A stretch of DNA of 37,440 nucleotides from a virus: the IMG/VR virus record IMGVR_UViG_3300043411_000939, positions 1-37,440 of that record; one strand, given 5' to 3'. The notes beneath the pieces are model-generated. The model was given only the letters and a program-made list of their open reading frames with translations. It did no database searches and was not told the origin of the DNA. A program made the translations under genes and the position numbers. This document shows positions 4,704 to 21,088 of the stretch, one piece after another. How positions within the stretch are numbered: position 1 is the stretch's first letter; each line of letters opens with the position of its first letter.

Positions 4704-5216
4704 ACATGAGAGATTTTTAAAACAAAGCTGGCGCAAATTGACTCCATTCAAATCAAGAATGCTCTGCGCCTACAGAGTTTTAGTGCAATGAATGGTTCTT
4801 AAAGCTATTTTCCTTTTTGGTCAAGAGATATTTTATCGCATGATGCAAAGGCGACAGGGGCAAGGGTTTTTCTTTGGCGGGGGATCTTTAAAGAGGGATG
4901 AGAACCAGAGGCGGAAGCGAAAGATCATTACAAAGGGAATCCGTTAAAAGCGAAAGAATCAGTGGGTATAGATTGGGTAGTTAAAAACATAAATTTTAAT
5001 AAGCAATCCTTAGACTTTGATTCCCGTCGAAACGTGAAATAATAAACCCCGTTATTTCGAGCTATTGGCCATGAATTGATTGTTTTGGGTTATTGTCCTA
5101 CCACATAACGACCCAAGGCATAATTTCATTAACTTTCGCCCATCTCCCCGGGTCCAACGGTCATAGAAAACATTTGGCGCAAATAAAGGCAGATTTGGGC
5201 ATTGATTCGTCTCCTT
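4704..5216 (-). other. About 510-bp untranslated region between an early gene and terS (late-operon leader, pac/cos region, or ncRNA)
   Basis: No credible ORF on either strand. Purine-rich on the plus strand at 4850-4980, with AGCGAAAGA at 4916 and 4949. Ends in the terminator above. Confidence 0.4.
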
Positions 5217-5561
5217 CTACCCTGCTTTTGTGGGATTCGGGGCCGTTCCCCCACAATCACAACGAGGATGATGGAAAGTAAGCGTATGAACGCTTGCCAC
5301 TTCATCCCTGGCCTGGTCTATAGACAATTCTTCTTTGCCCTTAGCTTTGCGAATCGCGTTCTTCAGGTCGAATAGAGTTTCAGATATATTCGCCAAATCA
5401 GCCACGGCATTGAAAACCGTCGTTTCGTCCATCCCGTCCAGCGATTCGTTCCTCACGTTTTCCAAGGCCAAGTGTATGGCCCAGAAAATTTCATCACCGT
5501 TAAAATCGGGCAAGTCTCCACCAACATTTTTGACCATGATCGTTTCAAACCCTGTTTTCAT
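5217..5561 (-). CDS. Hypothetical protein (114 aa)
   Basis: The ORF overlaps the methyltransferase stop and is acidic. No motif recognised. Confidence 0.6.
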   Translation of the reverse strand: MKTGFETIMVKNVGGDLPDFNGDEIFWAIHLALENVRNESLDGMDETTVFNAVADLANISETLFDLKNAIRKAKGKEELSIDQARDEVASVHTLTFHHPRCDCGGTAPNPTKAG

Positions 5562-6402
5562 TAAATACCCCCATTAATCTTTTGAACGCTTCTTTCGCTT
5601 GTTCTGGAACCACTGCATTGCCAAGACATTTAAGTTTGTCCACCCGGTTTGGTACCCCATGAGCCACTCGACCCATGTCGGGTTCAACTGACCACCAACC
5701 GACGTCGGCAGATCGCTCTGCCGACCGCCCCTGGCTATCGTTCCCTTCCCTGGCTTCGTGTAGTTGTGGTTTTGTGGCGTTGGCCATACCTTCACTTGGT
5801 GAGGAAGATTCCCGTGTCCCGACTTCTCCCCGTCCGTCCCCAAGTGAGTTCGCCACAGCATACGCTTTAACTTTGCTTTCCCATTCTTCCCGCCATTGTT
5901 GGCCCCGCATGGTGTAGGCCAGAAGCCACCATCTTTCCCGCTTGTGGTTGGCCCCGACTTCGGAAGCCGATAAAGTGATCCACCGAGCGTCATACCGCAA
6001 GCGGGCCAATTCTCCGATAACTTTGTCGGCGCCTCTTGTCCGAATAGCAGGGACGTTTTCCAGGAAGATGAACTTCGGTCGTATTTCATCAACGAGTCTG
6101 ACGATCTCATAAAATAGGCCGCTCCGCTCTCCGCCCAAGCCTTTTCCAGTTCCCGCAACACTAATATCCTGACATGGGAATCCTCCATATACGATGTCCA
6201 CAAGTCCATTGAATCTTGCACCTTTGAGTGTTCGCACATCATCCCAGATGGGAGCAACAGGCAATTTACCTTCTTGCATACGTGACAGTAATACACCAAT
6301 CGCGTATTCTTCACTCTCACAATAGGCGACGGGGATGACCCACTCTTTGAGGGCGATTGTGATTCCACCGATACCTGTAAAAAGATCCAAGCCATTCAGC
6401 AT
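5545..6402 (-). CDS. DNA (cytosine-5)-methyltransferase, orphan
   Basis: Motif I LDLFTGIGG, motif IV GGFPCQDIS, motif VI FLENV, motif VIII-like HKRERWW and motif X LGNAVVPE. No restriction endonuclease gene is adjacent. Confidence 0.9.
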   Translation of the reverse strand: MLNGLDLFTGIGGITIALKEWVIPVAYCESEEYAIGVLLSRMQEGKLPVAPIWDDVRTLKGARFNGLVDIVYGGFPCQDISVAGTGKGLGGERSGLFYEIVRLVDEIRPKFIFLENVPAIRTRGADKVIGELARLRYDARWITLSASEVGANHKRERWWLLAYTMRGQQWREEWESKVKAYAVANSLGDGRGEVGTRESSSPSEGMANATKPQLHEAREGNDSQGRSAERSADVGWWSVEPDMGRVAHGVPNRVDKLKCLGNAVVPEQAKEAFKRLMGVFNENRV

Positions 6403-6674
6403 TTCCCTTTATTCCTGTTTTCTACGACCGTCAAACATCCCTCCCGCTCTCTTCTTTTTCTTCTATGGTCAAGGAAAAACACAAACTGTAGGCGCTCATT
6501 GTCTTTTTCATCCTCGCAACGCATCCTCGACTCTTTTTTACAACGAGCGCATTTCGCCAATAAGAAGTTGTATCTGTGGGCTGTCATGGCTTGATTTATT
6601 TCCTCTTGAAGATCGGTATCTTTTAGCGGTTCCCATATATGACCTTTTAAATAACAAAAGAATTTTTTAAGCAA
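6396..6674 (-). CDS. Hypothetical Cys/His protein (92 aa)
   Basis: The N-terminus FCYLKGHIWEP...CARCKK is zinc-ribbon-like and the C-terminal half is low complexity. Overlaps both neighbouring genes. Confidence 0.5.
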   Translation of the reverse strand: MLKKFFCYLKGHIWEPLKDTDLQEEINQAMTAHRYNFLLAKCARCKKESRMRCEDEKDNERLQFVFFLDHRRKRREREGCLTVVENRNKGKC

Positions 6675-7311
6675 ATTGAAATTCCAGTGCAGCTTCTTCC
6701 AGTTCCTTTTCTGTTTCTCTCACATACGGCATCACAGAGTTAAGGCTCGCCCACCCGCCAAGCTTTTGAAGTGTCCACGGATCATGATTATGTTTCCTTA
6801 ACGTCGGGAAGCTCGCTCGAAAACTATGTGGCGTGATTCTCTTTTGAATTCCCGCTTGGTTAACATACTTTTGAATAAGAATATCAACCGCTTTCGGAGT
6901 GATCCTTCCGGCTTCATAAGGCCCATGTTTACCAAGCGTTCTAAACAGCGGAGAACTTGGTGTTCGTTGATGATCAAGATCGCAGTACCTTTTAATTCCT
7001 TCGTACACCTTATCTGAAATAGGCACTCGGACCCAGAAAGTCCTTTCTGTTTTTTTCTTGAGAGCTTTGTAAATGATGAATTTCTTTTCGCCTTCACTGA
7101 TTAAATTCTCCGTGTCCAAACTGCAAATCTCGCCTTTACGCATAGCGGTATTTCCAAATGCCAATAAAACGGCATAATCTCTTGATCCGTGTTTACTTCT
7201 CCGGTCCGGCAACGTCATAATCATTTGTAATTCCTGTTCTGTTAAAACGTCCGACTGTCCGACCGGCCTTCCTCTCTTCCCCTGTGCGCCTATCACCTGG
7301 GCTTGCTCCAT
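6667..7311 (-). CDS. Tyrosine recombinase, short (214 aa, catalytic domain only), Cre-like active site
   Basis: Box I NTAMRKGEICSL (Arg). Box II TPHSFRASF (His-x-x-Arg). LGGWASLNSVMPYV has Trp in place of the second His, as at Cre W315, plus the nucleophile Tyr. Confidence 0.8.
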   Translation of the reverse strand: MEQAQVIGAQGKRGRPVGQSDVLTEQELQMIMTLPDRRSKHGSRDYAVLLAFGNTAMRKGEICSLDTENLISEGEKKFIIYKALKKKTERTFWVRVPISDKVYEGIKRYCDLDHQRTPSSPLFRTLGKHGPYEAGRITPKAVDILIQKYVNQAGIQKRITPHSFRASFPTLRKHNHDPWTLQKLGGWASLNSVMPYVRETEKELEEAALEFQFA

Positions 7312-8226: not shown

Positions 8227-8461
8227 TGGGATTAGCCTTGGTTGGTTTGACTGAGAAATCGTTGGTCCATGTTTTAACCGCCTCTGTTAATTCCATGATG
8301 GGTGTCCCACTTTGACAAGAGCTACATTGAATGATGTAGCCCTTCTCTTTTACTGAGTCATTAATGCAATGTGTTACGATGTTTTTTCGGTCGCATCCGT
8401 TCCTGCAATCCTGGAGCGTTATGATAATTACTCCGTCTTTAGAATCTGGATCAACAATCAC
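8216..8461 (-). CDS. Hypothetical Cys-rich protein, possibly Lar-like (restriction alleviation)
   Basis: IIQCSSCQSGTPIMELTEAVKTWTND resembles the C..C.a.gp...eAi..WN signature of Lar-family zinc ribbons. This is a weak match judged by eye. Confidence 0.5.
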   Translation of the reverse strand: MIVDPDSKDGVIIITLQDCRNGCDRKNIVTHCINDSVKEKGYIIQCSSCQSGTPIMELTEAVKTWTNDFSVKPTKANPNGR

Positions 8462-8811
8462 GCCGCTTTCTTAACGTGCCAAAGCCGAATCCTTTTTTTC
8501 CTGCGCGTGATGATTTCTTTATCAGACACGCCAAGTTTTACCTGTTTGGCTTTGTATTCCTCGTTTCTCTCTTTCCAGTTTCTACCAAAGGCCAGATCGT
8601 CCAACACGTCATTAATTGACTGTTGATGGAAATAGGAAATGCGCGACAAGTACATATATTTTTCCACTGACTTAAACCGGGCCGGGAAATTCACTTCGTT
8701 TTTTTCTTTCTTCTTTTTCATTATTCCTTTGTTTCCTTCGTTTGCGTCGCGGCCTCCGACGATTTCAAAATTAAAGTTGTTCATTGCCCGACCGCCTTCC
8801 GACTTGACCAA
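8458..8811 (-). CDS. Hypothetical protein (117 aa)
   Basis: ORF in the operon, Lys-rich. No motif recognised. Confidence 0.55.
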   Translation of the reverse strand: MVKSEGGRAMNNFNFEIVGGRDANEGNKGIMKKKKEKNEVNFPARFKSVEKYMYLSRISYFHQQSINDVLDDLAFGRNWKERNEEYKAKQVKLGVSDKEIITRRKKRIRLWHVKKAA

Positions 8812-9071
8812 AACAGTTTCTCTTCATAAAGGCATTCGAGACATTTCTTATTATCCATGTAGGCGTCGCCGTGATCCAGACACCAATCTTTCTCGCGAAT
8901 CATTTTTTCTTTTTCTTGAATGCAACATTGGAAGTCTGGATTCTCTGCGTTCTCGTAAAAGTCCGCGCTTTTCATGTGGCCCTCGTGGCAACATGCCCCG
9001 TTACATTCCGGGCTATGGCCTTCCGGGGGGTTGTACCAGTTTGGCTTTGGTCCGTTGATCTCTGTCAGCAT
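8781..9071 (-). CDS. Hypothetical Cys/His-rich protein (96 aa)
   Basis: CNGACCHEGH...QCCIQ...WCLDHGD...CLEC suggests a metal-binding miniprotein. First gene after the 9072..9227 intergenic region; GGAGGTG lies upstream of the ATG. Confidence 0.6.
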   Translation of the reverse strand: MLTEINGPKPNWYNPPEGHSPECNGACCHEGHMKSADFYENAENPDFQCCIQEKEKMIREKDWCLDHGDAYMDNKKCLECLYEEKLFWSSRKAVGQ

Positions 9072-9132
9072 TTTTACACCTCCGACGAATCGATAGTAGG
9101 TTTAACATCGCGCCTAATCGAATGTCATTTCT

Positions 9133-9140
9133 TGATATCA
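9133..9140. promoter_or_regulatory. TGATATCA palindrome, copy 1 of 3 (candidate operator)
   Basis: The 8-bp palindrome occurs only at 9133, 11751 and 14474, and all three copies are intergenic. This copy shares TGATATCAGGG with the 11751 site read on the other strand. Confidence 0.35.
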
Positions 9141-9193
9141 GGGTTATTCACCCTTTTTTTGAGTTGGTCAAGCTAATTCTCTTCTAAATTAAT

Positions 9194-9223
9194 GCGGGTC
9201 GCCAAGGCCGTTGGACAACCCGC
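9194..9223 (-). terminator. Hairpin / weak terminator after gene 9228..9530
   Basis: GCGGGT-TGT-CCAA-CGGCC-TTGG-CG-ACCCGC on the minus strand, followed by ATTAATTT (a modest U-run). Confidence 0.35.
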
Positions 9224-9227
9224 AAAA

Positions 9228-9530
9228 TCATTGATCTCTATTAATCTCTTCGGCAATCCTAGAAATCTCTCTCTCGTAAAGTCTCTTCGCCTCGTTGTCT
9301 ACCATGACCTTACGATTCGCGCCATTTAGACTCGAAACATCTTTGTTAAGAGCTTCGCAATATTGGATCGCAATCCAACGATATACATCCCGCTCAACGG
9401 CCATGTCGTGTAGTTCAACGCTCAAAATCACGTGTTGAAATTCGCGCCTGTCTTTCATGCCCTTATCAACGTTCTTGATCTCAGAAAATATTTTCTCAAC
9501 GTCAGATGGAAAATGTTCGCGTATTGTCAT
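9228..9530 (-). CDS. Hypothetical protein (100 aa)
   Basis: ORF abutting the upstream stop. Confidence 0.6.
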   Translation of the reverse strand: MTIREHFPSDVEKIFSEIKNVDKGMKDRREFQHVILSVELHDMAVERDVYRWIAIQYCEALNKDVSSLNGANRKVMVDNEAKRLYEREISRIAEEINRDQ

Positions 9531-9731
9531 TTAAGAGATTTTTACGATGGAACAAAACTCCGCCAGTTTTAAAAGAGCAGGGGCATATAATTCAGCCACC
9601 AGTTTCTTATGGAGTTCCGGCTGTTTTTCCTCTGTCGATTTCCAGCAAGCTTGTAAGGCTTTTATTTTTTCCACAGTGTCGGAAGAAATAGTATCCCACT
9701 GAACATCTTCATATTTATATTTAAAGTTCAT
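9531..9731 (-). CDS. Hypothetical protein (66 aa from MNFKYKYED...; the ORF track extends it to 9791)
   Basis: The internal ATG at 9731 gives an 11-nt overlap with the radC-like stop, instead of a 70-nt overlap. Confidence 0.5.
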   Translation of the reverse strand: MNFKYKYEDVQWDTISSDTVEKIKALQACWKSTEEKQPELHKKLVAELYAPALLKLAEFCSIVKIS

Positions 9732-10278
9732 AGTTCTCATTCCGATGGCTGTAATATTTGTCCGTCCCATCTCCCACCACAATAAAATCACGCATGGGGG
9801 TGTTCAGGCGTTGCCCCAATTCCCGGAACTCTTCCAAAATCAGTTTGTCTTCATCGCTCAAGAAAATCTTCCCGGATGGATGATTGTGACCAAGAATAAA
9901 TCCATGCGCGAGAAACAGCGGCGACAGAACAATCGAAAAAACTTGTTTCGGGTCAACCATGACATGATTCGTTGAACCGATGCCGACCGTCTTTGTAAGG
10001 ATTGGATAGTTATCAACATTTAGAAGAATCAAAACCATCACTTCGATGCCATCCCCATGGTGGTTGTGCTGAATGCTTATCTCATTGCGAATCAAGTCAA
10101 CCGCAATTTGCGGCGCCGATATGGATTCCTTTGGGATAGACATCACGCCATCTCTGACCATTTTCATCCTAGGGATATCAACAAACTCTTGGCGTTTGGG
10201 CGCTGGTTGGATGGCGCGTCTTTTCGCGTCTTCAAATAATTCTCTAAAGAGTTTTTGGTTTTGCTTTCGTTGTTCCAT
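9721..10278 (-). CDS. RadC-like JAB/MPN domain protein
   Basis: GFILGHNHPSGKIFLSDEDKLILEEF matches the RadC JAMM motif (H-x-H-P-S-G...S-x-x-D). Confidence 0.8.
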   Translation of the reverse strand: MEQRKQNQKLFRELFEDAKRRAIQPAPKRQEFVDIPRMKMVRDGVMSIPKESISAPQIAVDLIRNEISIQHNHHGDGIEVMVLILLNVDNYPILTKTVGIGSTNHVMVDPKQVFSIVLSPLFLAHGFILGHNHPSGKIFLSDEDKLILEEFRELGQRLNTPMRDFIVVGDGTDKYYSHRNENYEL

Positions 10279-14542: not shown

Positions 14543-14962
14543 ATGGAAACAGAAATTACGGTTCAAAAACTTCGTGATGGTTGGCTTTTTTTCATGCCGT
14601 TATGTCCTTCAACCAACGCGAGGATGCAGCCGGTACGCATGGGTCGGCACTGTCAATCCATTCTGACAACAGAGGCAAGAAACTACATCGCCTCGACGGC
14701 CATTCAGTTGAAGGCGCACATGAAAGTAAACAAGATTAAACCGATCGAAACTTTCACTTATATGGATTTGTGGTTTATTTTGCCGAGAACGAATTGTGAC
14801 GCTCACAACTACGGGAAAGTGTTGTTTGACGCCATGGAAGAAGGCGGGTTTGTCACCAACGACAAGTTCATTTTGCCGCGAATTATGGGTGTGTCTTTTG
14901 ATGCGAAAAATAGCGCCGTTGTCGCCAAGATCCCGTTTTGTCGTACCGCTCCTAAGCCTTGA
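14543..14962 (+). CDS. rusA: RusA-family Holliday junction resolvase
   Basis: 139 aa. PSTNARMQP (the PPS.N-like insertion motif) and CDAHNYGKVLFDAMEEGGFVTNDKFI match the D.DN..K...D......DD core of RusA. Confidence 0.65.
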   Translation: METEITVQKLRDGWLFFMPLCPSTNARMQPVRMGRHCQSILTTEARNYIASTAIQLKAHMKVNKIKPIETFTYMDLWFILPRTNCDAHNYGKVLFDAMEEGGFVTNDKFILPRIMGVSFDAKNSAVVAKIPFCRTAPKP

Positions 14963-15113: not shown

Positions 15114-16100
15114 ATGTTGCCGCAAAAGTCAGAACAAAACACACCAACCGAACCTGTTAAATCACCCGCCCTTCATGTCGTAAACCCACAAAGAATGGAC
15201 CGCACAAAATACATTGGCGGAACTGATGCCGCCGCGATTTGCGGGCTCTCGCAATGGAAAACACCAATACAAGTTTGGGCTTTGAAGACCGGGAAAATTC
15301 AAGAGGAAGATATTAGCGACAAGCTTCCCGTGAAACTCGGAATCAAACTTGAACAAACTGTTTGCGAATTGTTCATGGAAGAAACCGGAAAGAAATTACA
15401 CCGGGTTAATGAAACGCTTTTTCATCCGAAACATAAATTCATTGGCGCAAATATTGATCGCCGGGTTGTTGGTGAGAACGCTATCTTTGAAGCGAAAACA
15501 TGCTCCGCCTACAAAGATAAAGAATGGGCGAACGGAGAAATCCCTGCTGACTATATTCTGCAATGCCATCATTATTTGATGGTCACGGGCGCAGAACGTT
15601 GTTATCTCGCCGTCTTAATCGGGAATCAGGATTTTCAAATCAGAATTATTGAACGTGACGAAAAGGTGATGGCTTCATTGCTGGAAAGAGAAGTTTTATT
15701 CTGGAAGGATTATGTCGAAGCCGACATCATGCCGTGGGTTGTGACGCACCGAGACGGCGACACTATTTCCCAATTGTATCCCGTGGCCGATGAGGCAAAA
15801 GAAATAACGCTGGGTGATGACGCCAATAAACTAATCGAAAACCTGAAAGCCTTTGAAGCCGATCAAAAGAATCTCGACAATCTCATCAAACAGCACAAAA
15901 ACGAACTTAAACTTTTACTTGGTGACGCCATCCAAGGCTCAACCGGCATCAACCGCGTTCGCTGGATTAATTCCAAGCAATCTAATCTTGACGGAAAAGG
16001 TTTGCTTGAAAAATATCCGGACATCCACAAAGAATTTTATAGCAGTACCCCCGTTAGGCGATTCAGTTGTGGGGCAATTAAGAAGGAAAAGGAAGGATAA
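15114..16100 (+). CDS. YqaJ-like (lambda Exo-type, PD-(D/E)XK) recombination exonuclease
   Basis: YIGGTDAAAICGLSQWKTPIQVWALKTGK ... IDRRV ... IFEAKT ... QCHHYLMVTG. The ATG at 15114 has GGAGG 7 nt upstream; the ORF track starts it at a TTG at 15051. Confidence 0.85.
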   Translation: MLPQKSEQNTPTEPVKSPALHVVNPQRMDRTKYIGGTDAAAICGLSQWKTPIQVWALKTGKIQEEDISDKLPVKLGIKLEQTVCELFMEETGKKLHRVNETLFHPKHKFIGANIDRRVVGENAIFEAKTCSAYKDKEWANGEIPADYILQCHHYLMVTGAERCYLAVLIGNQDFQIRIIERDEKVMASLLEREVLFWKDYVEADIMPWVVTHRDGDTISQLYPVADEAKEITLGDDANKLIENLKAFEADQKNLDNLIKQHKNELKLLLGDAIQGSTGINRVRWINSKQSNLDGKGLLEKYPDIHKEFYSSTPVRRFSCGAIKKEKEG

Positions 16101-16103
16101 GCA

Positions 16104-16899
16104 CATGGCAAAATTAGGCGACATTCAGAATTCAATTCAAGGGAATAATTTAACAGCGGCCCCGGCGCGGTTGGCTCAATTGTTGGGGCGTGTTGACATT
16201 AAAGAAAAGTTTCAAGAAATGCTTGGGAAGAAATCAGCGGGTTTTCTTTCATCAATATTGTCGCTTTATAATTCAACGCCACAACTGCAAGCGTGTGATC
16301 CCATGTCGATCATTGCCTCCGCTGCCATTGCCGCAACTCTTGACCTTCCAATTAACCAAAACTTTGGATACGCGTATCTTATTCCATATGGGAATCAGTG
16401 CCAGTTTCAATTGGGATATAAAGGAATTATCCAATTAGCCATGCGGACCAGTATGTATAAAACAATCTCCGCTGCCGAGGTTTATGAGGGCGAGTTGGTT
16501 AAATATAACCGCATCACCGGAGAAACGGAAATCGACGAAAGCAAGCGCACCTCTGACAAAATAATTGGATATGTTGCCTACTTCAAATTGCTGAGCGGAT
16601 TTGAAAAATATCTTTTTATGAAAGTCGAACAGATCGAAGCGCATGGAAAGAAATTCTCAAAATCTTACGGACGAACATCGGGGCCATGGTCAACAAACAA
16701 AGAAGCCATGATGCAAAAAACGCCGCTCAAGTTATTACTTTCAAAATACGGCGTGCTTTCAATTGAAATGCAAACAGGAATGACGTTCGATCAAGCGGCT
16801 GTTAAGAAACTCGAAAACCCGGTTCCTGAATATATCGACGGAATGGAAATCAACGACGCGATCGAACCCGCCGACATTCCATCGCCAGACGTGAAATAA
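16104..16899 (+). CDS. recT: RecT-family single-strand annealing protein
   Basis: 265 aa from MAKLGDIQ. SIIASAAIAATLDLPINQNFGYAYLIPYGNQCQFQLGYKGIIQLAMRT is the RecT core. Lies directly after the exonuclease gene; the 5' extension in the ORF track is an overlap artefact. Confidence 0.88.
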
Positions 16900-16919
16900 T
16901 TATTAAGTTAACCGATTCA

Positions 16920-17560
16920 GCATATCGCTTGAAAGACATAGAAACCGCAAGTTCTATATTGATTGGGTGATATGTCAGTTGAAAGCCCTCACCATGAAGA
17001 CTTCATGTCGGGATTGGTGGGGGTTCCCTGGGCGGGGAGGGTTGACGTTATGCGTCAGTCCGATGATCCGCCTGGGGAATAAATTTAATGAACCGTGGGG
17101 CGGGAGCAATCCCGTCATCATTGCCAGCGGAGTTCACGGGTACGATCTGGCCCCCAAGTGCGAAGGGCGTAAATTGCGATATGAGAAAGCCTGGAATCCA
17201 AGTTGACCTGACGTTCTGAGATAGTAACTATGAGGCGCGTTCCTTTTGTGGGTGAACGTTGCGTGTGTACGTGGGGAGGGTATCTTAATGAAGATGGTCG
17301 GCGCATAGAACGGCTTGACAGATTGGAGAGACAATCATTCCTTCTGGGGATTTAAATTTGTCCGTGCTAGGCAACGACCTACAGTCTGGGGGTATCAAAA
17401 CCGTCAGGCCACGGACATTAAATTTGCAGGTGCGACCCTACGTCGAGGGAGCGAAAGCGGTTCAAGCGGGCTACCGGACGTTAATAGCGTAACGGAACAA
17501 CGTCACACGGTCGGAGTAATAACCGGCCACCTGCAATAAATTTAAACGTTCGTTTATATT
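16920..17560 (+). ncRNA. Candidate large structured non-coding RNA (about 600 nt; family unknown; boundaries approximate)
   Basis: The largest ORF-free gap in the genome, and G-rich on the plus strand. Helices: 17026-35/17068-77 (10 bp, 2 G.U), 17039-47/17053-61 (9 bp, 2 G.U), 17099-105/17110-16 with a GCAA tetraloop, 17354-66/17410-25, and 17424-32/17528-36 (9 bp). The G.U pairs work only on the plus strand. Confidence 0.55.
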
Positions 17561-17615
17561 CGTAAGAAAAGCACAAAATAAGACACCGATATTAACGATC
17601 ATTTATGGAGGATGT

Positions 17616-17684
17616 ATGAGTACATGCCCACACTGCGGGCAGGCTGTAGGCGATCAAATGCAACATAAATGTAAGGGGAACTGA
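17616..17684 (+). CDS. 22-aa Cys-rich miniprotein (below the ORF-track cutoff)
   Basis: MSTCPHCGQAVGDQMQHKCKGN. GGAGGA lies 5 nt upstream, and the stop is 1 nt before the next ATG (TGAAATG). Confidence 0.4.
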   Translation: MSTCPHCGQAVGDQMQHKCKGN

Positions 17685-17685
17685 A

Positions 17686-18132
17686 ATGAGCAAGAATAAA
17701 GAAGAACTTAAGCCGTGTCCGTTTTGTGGATTTAATAAATGCGAATTAATTAATCCATTGAATGGAACATCTCCATATGTTTCTTGCGATAAATGCCACG
17801 CGGATTTTTATGCCGTAAGTTGGAACAACGCCTATTGCTGGAAAGAAATCGACTCTCTCAAATCCCAGCTTGCCGAGAAGTGTAACCATAAATATATTTT
17901 CAGCCCAATTGACACTGAATTACACGTCCGTGAACTAGAAAATAAACTTGCCGAGTCTGAGAAAGCATTAGCGGAACGCGACCGTCTGCTCCTTGAAAAG
18001 GAACGTCTTTTACAGAAAGTGGTGGAAGGGCTTGATACCTTATCGAAACCATGCGGTAGTTTTGCAAACGTTATGGAAATCGCAGAAAAGTATCTTAAAG
18101 AAATCCGCAGCTCGGTCGGTGGTTCTAAATGA
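17686..18132 (+). CDS. Lar-like zinc-ribbon protein with a coiled-coil C-terminus
   Basis: LKPCPFCGFNKCEL...VSCDKCHADFYAVSWNNAYCW resembles the Lar restriction-alleviation family N-terminus (KPCPFCG...C..C...WN). The remainder is predicted coiled coil. Confidence 0.5.
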   Translation: MSKNKEELKPCPFCGFNKCELINPLNGTSPYVSCDKCHADFYAVSWNNAYCWKEIDSLKSQLAEKCNHKYIFSPIDTELHVRELENKLAESEKALAERDRLLLEKERLLQKVVEGLDTLSKPCGSFANVMEIAEKYLKEIRSSVGGSK

Positions 18133-18293
18133 ACAGGGTATATTGGTCTAAAAACCATGATCCATACGAATGGCCAGAGGGATTAAAGACCTTTTATTTC
18201 CCCTTTGCAGAGAAAGTGATGCGGTACTCTTTGGGGAGAAAACTAGTCCTTTTGTATTTGCGTATCCGTTTAGTATTTGGGGGTGGGGAATGA
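18129..18293 (+). CDS. 54-aa hypothetical protein (below the ORF-track cutoff)
   Basis: MNRVYWSKNHDPYEWPEGLKTFYFPFAEKVMRYSLGRKLVLLYLRIRLVFGGGE. ATGA overlaps at both ends (18129-32 and 18290-93). Confidence 0.45.
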   Translation: MNRVYWSKNHDPYEWPEGLKTFYFPFAEKVMRYSLGRKLVLLYLRIRLVFGGGE

Positions 18294-18742
18294 AATACAG
18301 ATGCCTTATGCTTGATGGCCCACGGCACGGGAACTTATTTGAAACCAATGATGTGAGGCCGACGTATCGGTTCATGATCCAGGAACGACTCAAACCACTA
18401 GCTGTAGGTATCCAAGAAATCCATGTCCCAGTCAGACACGTCGAATATAAGATCGCTTTCAAAAGTATTGATCAAGATGAGCCTATGTTTCTTTACTCTT
18501 TGAATGGACGTGTTGATTCATTTTTATTGGGAGATTGGGTGGTTGATCCGCGAAGGAAGCCATCCCCCGTTACATACCTACAGGGAATTGAAGTCAGAGA
18601 CAAAAAAGAAATCGTTATGTGGATCGAGCGTTTGCGTAATTTGGCGAAGAATCCGAAAGAATCATTCGTAAAAGAAGTGAACTTCATTATCAATGAGATC
18701 GCGGTGTTGCTGAATGCGGGCCAAGGAGATATGAATAAATGA
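18290..18742 (+). CDS. Hypothetical protein (150 aa from MKYRCLMLDG; the ORF track starts it at 18170)
   Basis: The ATG at 18290 is preceded by GGGTGGGG and is coupled by ATGA to the 54-aa ORF. Confidence 0.6.
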   Translation: MKYRCLMLDGPRHGNLFETNDVRPTYRFMIQERLKPLAVGIQEIHVPVRHVEYKIAFKSIDQDEPMFLYSLNGRVDSFLLGDWVVDPRRKPSPVTYLQGIEVRDKKEIVMWIERLRNLAKNPKESFVKEVNFIINEIAVLLNAGQGDMNK

Positions 18743-20449: not shown

Positions 20450-21088
20450 TTATCCCCTTTTTCTGTTTGGTCGGATTGCCTTGATCCGTTTCTCTGACAT
20501 CTTAAAAACCCATAATGAATGCGCGTCGTGCATCGATATCCCGTCATAACCATAACGGGACGGAATAAATTTCGCAAAGGAAAAACCGTGTTTCTTTATT
20601 TGGGCATCGCTTAAACATTGCTTGAGTGAATCATGGCAAAGAATTGGGGTACTCTTTGATACCTCCAGCATATGGTGGGCCATGTTGATATGGCGGCCCC
20701 TTATGACAATCTTCCCACTTTTCTTGACTTTCCTGTGAACATACCCGGACGCAATGCGAATTCTAAAACCGGCTGGTTTTGGGGGCTCTTTGTCACGGAT
20801 CAGCTTTTGGATTCTTTTATAAATGCCCCATAGATTAACGAGCGCATCCGCAACAATTGAGCAATTATGGCCCTTCACCAAATCCACCGAACACAAAAAC
20901 CCGTCGCCGGTATCGGTGAACGTGTACCCCGTTTTTCTTTCTACCTCGTCAATAATCCCGTCGAATTTGTCAAAGAACGGACTAAACTCCATCAAGTCAT
21001 TTGTTACGGATTCCTCAAATGCGGTAAAGCCGGTGATGTCTCCAAAGGCAACAATAATGCGGGTTTTCTCTGATCGTTCATAAGCCAT
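20450..21088 (-). CDS. Class III nucleotidyl cyclase-like protein (minimal single domain, 212 aa)
   Basis: RIIVAFGDITGFTAF (compare F.DI.GFT, metal Asp 1). ERKTGYTFTDTGDGFLCSV (compare ..GDa.m.vF, metal Asp 2). FRIRIASGYVHRKV (compare lRIGIHtG.v). IRGRHINMAHHMLEVSK (compare GdtVN.AsRLes). Motif order is canonical. Confidence 0.6.
   Translation of the reverse strand: MAYERSEKTRIIVAFGDITGFTAFEESVTNDLMEFSPFFDKFDGIIDEVERKTGYTFTDTGDGFLCSVDLVKGHNCSIVADALVNLWGIYKRIQKLIRDKEPPKPAGFRIRIASGYVHRKVKKSGKIVIRGRHINMAHHMLEVSKSTPILCHDSLKQCLSDAQIKKHGFSFAKFIPSRYGYDGISMHDAHSLWVFKMSEKRIKAIRPNRKRG

Follow-up and report, generated by a model that had tools for sequence, protein, structure and literature searches.

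The subject of this analysis is a 717-base gap (positions 16900-17616) between the stop codon of recT (16899) and the start of a 22-codon open reading frame (ORF; start at 17617) in the virus record IMGVR_UViG_3300043411_000939, a 37,440-nt stretch of DNA that was analyzed as a whole and is referred to below as the window. We found that the gap is non-coding, that it folds in discrete patches and specifically on the plus strand, that its modules are independent of each other, and that one class of them has tRNA-like ends. It is probably a string of small, separately folding RNA-like modules that are swapped like cassettes, and not one giant RNA. The array matches no described family, is cassette-like and belongs to a rare phage clade. 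The modules are rather likely to exist as RNA; as a tentative model, small tRNA-like RNAs could be transcribed together as one array and then be separated by cleavage at the linkers, where transcription, processing and any function in trans are what we infer.

Relatives of the region were collected as contigs found via RecT proteins at least about 88% identical. They are of four kinds: a contig identical to the window (L081), contigs from three Logan runs (L082, L083 and L107), one further kind represented by NCBI entry CXWK01033155.1 (L108) and by ERR977410 (L109), and a contig that stops inside recT (L110). The flanks are 92.7% (L082) and 94.8% (L108) identical to those of the window. The window has the order H1, H2, H3, B, C, D, spacer. 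The L082 arrangement consists of H1, H2, H3, C' and D', with the Shine-Dalgarno sequence of the next gene directly after, and has no B. The L108 arrangement consists of two tiny ORFs, C'', H2-H3, a new stretch E that ends in a mini-module, and D', and has no H1. L082 and L108 agree in having no space between the last linker and the Shine-Dalgarno sequence. The elements of the window are as follows, with z scores against shuffled sequences for elements folded alone, hairpins from minimum free energy (MFE) folds and linkers from a motif scan:

16913-17078 (+): module A, made of three hairpins, H1, H2 and H3
16913-16981 (+): H1, a long AU-rich hairpin with several G.U pairs (z -3.3), found by nhmmer in L082 and not in L108
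16985-17024 (+): H2, a hairpin with a 30-nt core, CACCATGAAGACTTCATGTCGGGATTGGTG, that does not vary among the three arrangements
17025-17078 (+): H3, a bipartite 10+9-bp hairpin with a UUAUG loop (H2+H3, z -5.15), relocated within the L108 array
17080-17086 (+): linker 1, TAAATTT
17087-17352 (+): stretch B, 266 nt, G-rich, with no structure beyond chance and no coding signal, absent from L082 and L108
17353-17359 (+): linker 2, TAAATTT
17360-17417 (+): module C, 57 nt plus a 3' A, a predicted three-way junction (z -3.7)
17419-17425 (+): linker 3, TAAATTT
17426-17535 (+): module D, 109 nt plus a 3' A (z -2.6), with D' at the same position in the relatives
17537-17543 (+): linker 4, TAAATTT
17544-17616 (+): spacer, unstructured and rich in A and U, with the Shine-Dalgarno GGAGG of the next gene at its end; lacking in L082 and L108

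Since modules are missing, moved or replaced among these arrangements while their ends stay, they behave as independent units and not as domains of one fold. The constant parts are the module ends (7-bp closing stems) and the TAAATTT linkers, and the interiors of C, C' and C'', like those of D and D', are unalignable. The 28-nt C/D junction GGCCACGGACATTAAATTTGCAGGTGCG of the window is matched at 28 of 28 positions in L082 and at 27 of 28 in L108. The sequence shared by D and D' is limited to a 5'-terminal AAATTTGCAGGTGCG and a 3'-terminal CCGGCCACCTGCAATWAATTT; the D' of L108 is identical to that of L082. Stretch B is flanked by a 20-nt direct repeat (TCCGCCTGGGGAATAAATTT / TCCTTCTGGGGATTTAAATT), and by sequence the L082 junction looks like a recombination product between the two repeat copies.

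Folding statistics support a plus-strand RNA made of separate pieces. The MFE of the whole region (716 nt) is -239.7 kcal/mol on the plus strand (z -4.73, with 0 of 20 shuffles as good), which places it beyond shuffled controls, and the minus strand reaches a z of -1.71. This asymmetry, together with the G.U pairs, favours the plus strand, as had been proposed in the initial annotation of this DNA. In sliding windows of 120 nt folded on both strands and compared with shuffles, strong structure was predicted only in 16920-17119 (plus z -3.9 to -6.25; minus z -2.0 to -3.4) and 17320-17439 (plus z -4.5; minus z -0.35), and windows over 17080-17320 gave plus z values of +1.0 to +1.9. Pieces of B folded alone gave -1.4 to +1.5, and the 3' spacer +0.9. 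The predicted structure is thus patchy, with modules A, C and D structured and the 266-nt stretch B not, and the earlier description of the whole region as helix-dense does not hold. The individual helices listed there are all present and are recovered in MFE folds; the GNRA-capped one (17099-17116), however, lies in the unstructured stretch and is missing from the relatives. The long-range closing helices thought to be built on AAAUUU are accounted for by the self-complementary linker.

The four copies of AAATTT correspond to the linkers: four plus-strand TAAATTT sites are clustered in 464 nt (17080-17543), compared with seven sites in the remaining 37 kb. The two other motifs reported to be repeated, CTGGGGA..AAATTT and GGGGAGGGT, indeed occur in two copies each in the gap, and Tandem Repeats Finder (TRF) detected no tandem repeats there. 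The gap is also G-rich, as first described, with a GC content of 47-56.5% versus about 38-45% in the flanks and a GC skew of +0.22 to +0.29.

No genuine ORF was found in the gap, in line with its original description. The ORFs are only 31-79 aa long, lack a ribosome-binding site and genome-like codon usage, and have no match in Pfam or PHROGs at E<=1 except for one PHROG at E=0.38; the longest (79 aa) has zero homologues among 5.8 billion proteins. Their per-codon log-odds (-0.25 to +0.04) lie in the off-frame range, given reference values in 43-codon windows of 0.29 on average (5th percentile 0.06) for real genes in frame and -0.30 on average off frame.

We distinguish two proposed types of modules. 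Type I would include H2-H3 and a decayed copy at the end of B, and type II would include C, D, C', C'', D' and the mini-module E. In type II, constant tRNA-like ends (a 7-bp acceptor-like stem, a 4-6-bp T-arm-like hairpin, an A and an AU-rich linker) enclose a variable interior. The type II set comprises six modules, C and D from the window, C' and D' from L082, and C'', D' and E from L108, where D' is the same in both relatives. Each of them starts at a G right after the linker and has a closing stem, an unpaired A and an A/U linker without CCA; the closing stem is 7-8 bp long, except in E (5 bp). The closing stem is 95% paired over the six modules, and pairing falls to 24-50% when the 3' partner is shifted by 1-3 columns. 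Pairs 2, 3 and 4 are changed on both sides between the C-type (U-A, C-G, C-G) and the D-type (C-G, A-U, G-C). One-sided changes, GUCUGUG in C' and CACGGGC in C'', give G.U pairs and not mismatches.

A hairpin lies directly 5' of the closing 3' strand in six of the six type II modules. It is formed by GUCUGG/UCAGGC in C, GCCAG/CUGGC in C', CCUAUG/UAUAGG in C'', GUCGG/CCGGC in D, GCCGG/CCGGC in D' and GCCG/CGGC in E; that of C'' is 6 bp long and stands one unpaired nucleotide ahead of the acceptor strand. Such a hairpin alone is found in 3-17% of shuffles, and the combined p is about 0.002-0.003 for what is a post hoc criterion. The 7 + 5 bp in C', D and D' equal the 12-bp acceptor/T stack of tRNA, and in every one of the six modules except C the loop is closed by a G-C pair, comparable to G53-C61 of tRNA. 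Further, C, D, C', C'' and D' have a 7-8-bp stem followed by an A, in the manner of a tRNA acceptor stem with its 3' discriminator base. No anticodon arm (5-bp stem, 7-nt loop, U33) is present in its place, which is occupied by a 14-bp rod in D' and by a 60-nt domain in D.

According to the MFE fold, module C is closed by GUCCGUG/CACGGAC over 7-8 bp and contains one hairpin of 4 bp and a second one that adjoins the 3' strand. Module D has the closing stem GCAGGUG/CACCUGC, a D-arm-like hairpin, a central domain of about 60 nt and a T-arm-like hairpin, GUCGG-AGUAAUAA-CCGGC, that abuts the 3' strand. The T-like loops of these two modules are non-canonical (14 nt in C, 8 nt in D), so that C and D are predicted to have a tRNA-like outline without canonical loops. 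The closest approach to a tRNA is D', for which the MFE and the centroid structure agree on a cloverleaf: the acceptor stem has 7 bp, the D-arm has 6 bp and GG in its loop, and the T-arm, GCCGG-UUCAAUU-CCGGC, combines a 5-bp stem with a canonical 7-nt T-loop (UUCRANY) in L082 and L108. In its interior, the 14-bp rod at the anticodon-arm position is accompanied by an 11-nt variable region. Its z is -3.6 to -4.6, and it matches the Rfam tRNA-Sec model with 27.2 bits (E 0.003-0.004), below the gathering score of 47.

The H2-H3 pair of type I is 87% identical between L108 and the window over 92 nt, and most of the differences in H3 are compatible with its fold. In the outer stem, a C-to-U change turns G-C into G.U; in the inner stem, a G-to-A change turns U.G into U-A, and matched 1-nt deletions on both strands take out one G-C pair; an A-to-U change falls within the internal loop. 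Paired cells make up 98% of the alignment of the three H3 sequences. L108 no longer has the outer H2 stem, although the 30-nt core is 100% identical. The last 80 nt of B mimic the H3 pattern with a different sequence, namely GGGGAGGGT (RNA GGGGAGGGU), a short hairpin, CTGGGGA/CUGGGGA and a linker, and because of this repetition B partly resembles a decayed type I copy. Two additional features were observed in module A. The 30-nt core of H2 contains a perfect 15-bp palindrome, CATGAAGACTTCATG (16993-17007), which is single-copy in the window; its role as an operator was rejected, as there is no second site in the window. A canonical G-quadruplex motif (GGGGG-N6-GGG-C-GGGG-A-GGG) at 17019-17041 overlaps the H2/H3 junction; it was rejected as a functional element, as L108 does not keep the motif.

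Searches against known RNA families were negative, so that the modules would be novel if they are RNA. A cmscan of the whole window against Rfam 15 gave 0 matches at gathering thresholds, and at E<=10 the segment 16700-17800 gave only a weak minus-strand glutamine-riboswitch match and nothing relevant. Scans of L082, L108 and the other relatives at gathering and permissive thresholds assigned no family, with the D' tRNA-Sec match as the only sub-threshold hit. A tmRNA was rejected, as ARAGORN reported none and only a 14-bit chance match of the permuted tmRNA model was obtained over the D' T-arm. By blastn, the region and its L108 version matched nothing among GenBank phages, PLSDB plasmids and E. 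coli genomes. The region is not carried by loci with RecT homologues at 50-61% identity, and an nhmmer search of 80 IMG/VR RecT loci and of RecT relatives at 55-61% identity found no match beyond the three close relatives. The post-recT gaps of distant relatives hold other elements, for example terminators or a palindrome beside an integrase gene.

Pattern scans were made for individual parts of the array. The C/D junction and the H3 core had 0 matches in viral contigs, and the generic type II pattern had 0 matches in genome and viral collections. The D acceptor plus T-stem had one chance match in viral contigs, within a high-GC coding gene, and the D acceptor plus linker had 11 matches in metagenomes that were judged by reading to be due to chance, a negative that carries little weight because the collection did not return the window's own contig. 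A 21-mer of the D' T-arm and acceptor had 0 matches in GTDB representative genomes, and therefore D' does not, over these 21 nt, exactly reproduce the 3' end of a tRNA from any representative genome. Among chance matches of the pattern scan in unrelated metagenome contigs were two related hairpins of about 110 nt, GCAGGTGAGGAAGGG...CCCTTCCTCACCTGC (L097 789-913 and L101 7123-7235), which may be members of a repeat-element family.

In the proposed model, the array would be transcribed from the plus strand within the RusA-YqaJ-RecT early operon. RNase P would cut at the 5' G of type II modules, and RNase Z or RNase E would cut in the AU-rich linker; the G at +1 after an A/U leader, the 12-bp stack, the unpaired A and the U-rich trailer lacking CCA appear to satisfy the requirements of these enzymes. 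Cleavage would free stable RNAs of 57-125 nt and would also define where the downstream mRNA begins. Phages would exchange modules with each other through recombination in the conserved ends and the linkers. As for a role in trans, our guess is tRNA mimicry aimed at a host tRNA-binding or tRNA-cleaving factor, because of the anti-restriction neighbour, the fast cassette turnover and the existence of phage tRNAs that counter tRNA-cleaving defences. Cassette turnover of this speed is typical of anti-defence loci. In its strongest form, the proposal would define a new class of phage non-coding RNA. Its members would combine a hypervariable payload with a tRNA 'top-half' scaffold that stays constant (an acceptor/T minihelix of 12 bp and a 3' A, no CCA). 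The early recombination/anti-restriction operon would carry them as an array of exchangeable cassettes, host tRNA-processing enzymes would cut them out, and they would act in trans, for example as decoys for defence nucleases that target tRNA or for other host factors that bind it, with an arms race driving the turnover of the cassettes; we regard this complete version as quite unlikely.

Several observations weigh against the array model. The closing-stem covariation score was reached by 0 of 500 column shuffles, but it amounts to about one C-versus-D event and is therefore treated as suggestive. The covariation score of H3, with three sequences, was reached by 329 of 500 shuffles and is not significant. 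In total there are three distinct arrangements, and covariation rests on 3-6 sequences. Modules C' (z -1.4) and C'' (z -1.6) fold only weakly better than shuffles. The canonical T-loop is confined to D', which is not in the window, and ARAGORN predicted 0 tRNA or tmRNA genes in the window, L082, L083, L084, L086 and L001 (L108 has the same D' as L082). No further member came out of the exact-pattern scans, which covered IMG/VR, JGI/ENA metagenomes and GTDB. Stretch B is unexplained within the module scheme. Finally, where ends are 100% identical and the interiors between them unalignable, the ends could mark sites of recombination and not functional RNA termini.

One alternative is that the modules are cis-acting mRNA elements only, serving as processing or stability punctuation that separates the recT mRNA from the downstream mRNA, with functionless excised pieces. 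The array indeed lies inside an operon without a terminator, its last linker touches the Shine-Dalgarno sequence of the next gene in L082 and L108, and its module ends are tRNA-like. A precedent is provided by plant mitochondrial t-elements, tRNA-like structures within longer transcripts which are reported to act as RNase P or RNase Z processing signals and to define mRNA ends (PMC1920247); they belong to another domain of life, and the array differs in its diverse modules and fast turnover. One such element would do, yet there are 2-4 different modules in tandem; their interiors are large, diverse and partly strongly structured, and module order and content vary while the flanking genes are constant. 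We consider punctuation alone to be unlikely.

Another alternative is non-functional or selfish DNA, in which tRNA-derived relics and recombination scars have accumulated in a mosaic hot spot, and the module ends are RecT-type microhomologies or the footprints of small mobile elements (7-bp inverted ends, AT-rich target duplications). It would account for the identical ends around unalignable interiors, for the direct repeat that bounds B and the lack of B in relatives, for the duplication of the 3' end in L108 (GGCCACGGGC and GGCCACGGAC, on either side of H2-H3), for the boundary TGGAGGATGTATGAG that precedes different downstream genes, and for the several modules that fold only weakly better than chance. 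However, the strong folding is specific to the plus strand, unlike what neutral sequence or palindromic DNA would give, the T-arm and D-loop of D' are canonical, and one-sided changes consistently yield G.U pairs. A multicopy mobile element would not be expected to lack other copies in the window, in 110 loci and in three collections. Typical miniature inverted-repeat transposable elements (MITEs) have inverted ends longer than 7 bp. We consider an origin of the array as non-functional or selfish DNA to be unlikely.

A MITE or other small insertion element was also evaluated as a candidate in its own right and rejected, since the inverted ends are only 7-8 bp long, where at least about 15 bp would be expected, the modules are single-copy in the window and the 110 loci, and the collection scans had no true matches; the flanking TAAATTT can be read as a target duplication and equally as the common linker. 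Two further candidates were rejected. A ToxI-like type III antitoxin array would consist of near-identical repeats of about 34-45 nt, and here TRF was negative, the modules are dissimilar, and there is no adjacent ToxN/AbiQ-type endoribonuclease gene, the neighbours being recT and a Lar-like gene. A cluster of intrinsic terminators, which would show short GC-rich hairpins with a trailing U-run, was discarded, as there is no plus-strand terminator-like site in 16000-18500 and the linkers are mixed A/U (UUAAAUUU).

The modules might also be antisense regulators that are excised by RNase P and pair through their variable loops further down the same operon to control downstream genes. The C4 (P1/P7) and CI (P4) RNAs are small RNAs with a tRNA-like closing stem that are excised by RNase P from a phage operon transcript and whose variable interior sets their specificity. 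The modules are similar to them in the tRNA-like closing stem, the variable interiors and the location in an early/immunity operon, but the array has several different modules in tandem, and the Rfam C4 model has no match in the window or its relatives. Positions 17378-17388 of C are complementary over 11 nt (10 Watson-Crick pairs and 1 G.U) to 17640-17650 inside the 22-codon ORF, a match that is reached in 20 of 300 shuffles and is not significant. In general, the best complementary runs to 250 nt downstream are within the range of shuffles (p 0.07 to 0.98), RNAduplex energies to downstream sequence are not significant, and D' is identical in L082 and L108 despite their different first downstream genes. 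We regard antisense control of this kind as very unlikely.

The last alternative, a single large structured RNA of the ROOL/GOLLD kind spanning the whole ~700 nt, to which the region had originally been compared, is highly improbable and largely refuted by the three arrangements: the whole-region z of -4.73 and the ability of linkers to pair with each other would fit it, but there is no Rfam match, the central 270 nt are unstructured, and B is lost, H1 is lost, H2-H3 is relocated and the C/D interiors are replaced, so that a long-range tertiary architecture could not be conserved. The region shares with ROOL and GOLLD RNAs the phage context, the long ORF-free gap and the high predicted structure. 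It differs in that the covariance models of ROOL, GOLLD, HEARO, OLE and raiA gave no match at or near the gathering score, and in its make-up of separable units: neither the region as a whole nor a multi-domain architecture is conserved, the three relatives representing three arrangements.

Among known systems, the array is similar to phage tRNA clusters. In phage T4, the tRNA region also encodes two 'stable RNAs' of tRNA-like form, known as species 1 and species 2 (RNA C and RNA D), that are cut out like tRNAs by host tRNA-processing enzymes. Common to both are small structured RNAs in tandem with paired 5' and 3' ends and short AT-rich spacers, co-transcription and excision by host enzymes (which for the array are only proposed), and the presence of non-tRNA members of unknown function. 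In contrast to these clusters, the array has no decodable tRNA, anticodon arm or encoded CCA, its interiors are hypervariable between near-identical phages, and it has no sequence similarity to GenBank phages.

Phage tRNAs are reported to counter tRNA-targeting or tRNA-cleaving defences (PMC11555353, PMC10264068, PMC10802454). They too are tRNA-shaped RNAs in accessory or anti-defence regions, and the array adjoins a Lar-like anti-restriction gene; they are, however, functional tRNAs that replace cleaved host tRNAs, and because the array modules have no anticodon arms, these could act only as decoys. Bacterial Y RNA-like YrlA is a non-coding RNA with a tRNA-mimicking domain (T-arm, D-arm and acceptor-like stem) that is sometimes arranged in tandem and sometimes phage-encoded (PMC4201824). 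The ends of YrlA form a Ro-binding stem in place of the anticodon stem, whereas the ends of the array modules form an acceptor-like stem; in addition, the array has no Rfam match, and no Ro/Rsr gene was noticed among the window genes screened against Pfam.

If the modules are real processed RNAs, they would be the equivalent, at the RNA level, of the 'accessory gene cassettes' for proteins that phages shuffle in anti-defence hot spots, with a tRNA-mimic scaffold and swappable interiors in a phage clade without cultured relatives. They would join the few tRNA-like phage RNAs of unknown role, and would offer a compact testable system of 57-125-nt RNAs in which cleavage sites are clearly predicted and three allelic arrangements occur naturally. 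If they are recombination debris, the region would be a clean example of mosaic joints of about 28 nt beside recT.

The window belongs to an uncultivated phage of about 37 kb that is podovirus-like by its Pfam-screened genes (P22-type portal, terminase, SU10-type adaptor), and its capsid protein is at most 35% identical to any GenBank phage. The plus-strand early operon has the order RusA, YqaJ exonuclease, RecT, gap and then small genes, and no plus-strand terminator-like site was predicted in 16000-18500, from recT through the downstream genes. The genes and the boundary adjoining the gap are the following:

14543-14962 (+): RusA, the first named gene of the plus-strand early operon
16105-16899 (+): recT, PF03837 on the identical Logan contig, from the ORF list
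17617-17685 (+): 22-codon CxxC ORF with a GGAGG ribosome-binding site just upstream
17686-18132 (+): Lar-like (restriction alleviation) gene following the 22-codon ORF, with more small genes beyond
window 17607-17621, L082 3581-3595, L108 6434-6448: gene-start boundary

This gene-start boundary (TGGAGGATGTATGAG, or TGGGGGATGTATGAG in L108) stands ahead of three different first genes after the array and may be a mosaic joint at the ribosome-binding site. The two tiny ORFs of L108 lie between recT and the array (5795-5982) and encode a 32-aa hydrophobic peptide, which overlaps the recT stop, and a 27-aa lysine-rich CxxC..CxxC peptide.

Elsewhere in the window, a RadC-like JAB-domain protein is encoded at 9721-10278 (-) (PF04002, E 4e-20). 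A nucleotide-cyclase-like protein at 20450-21088 (-) (PF00211, E 2e-6) is kept in relatives (L082 7383-8021; L104 1323-1937; L108 10722-10795, cut by the locus end) and could be a signalling or anti-defence gene; the PF00211 match in L104, whose RecT is 58% identical, is weak. Immediately before an integrase gene, the same L104 contig has a long near-perfect palindrome (4976-5135), which folds with a z of about -5 to -6 whichever strand is taken and may be an attP or regulatory site. The window also encodes a short tyrosine recombinase (214 aa; 6667-7311, -) and a C5 DNA methylase (5545-6402, -). In L108, a C5 methylase gene (8413-9282, +) with a 124-nt stretch that is 78% identical to the methylase gene of the window sits in the plus-strand early operon instead, so that the gene may have moved between relatives.

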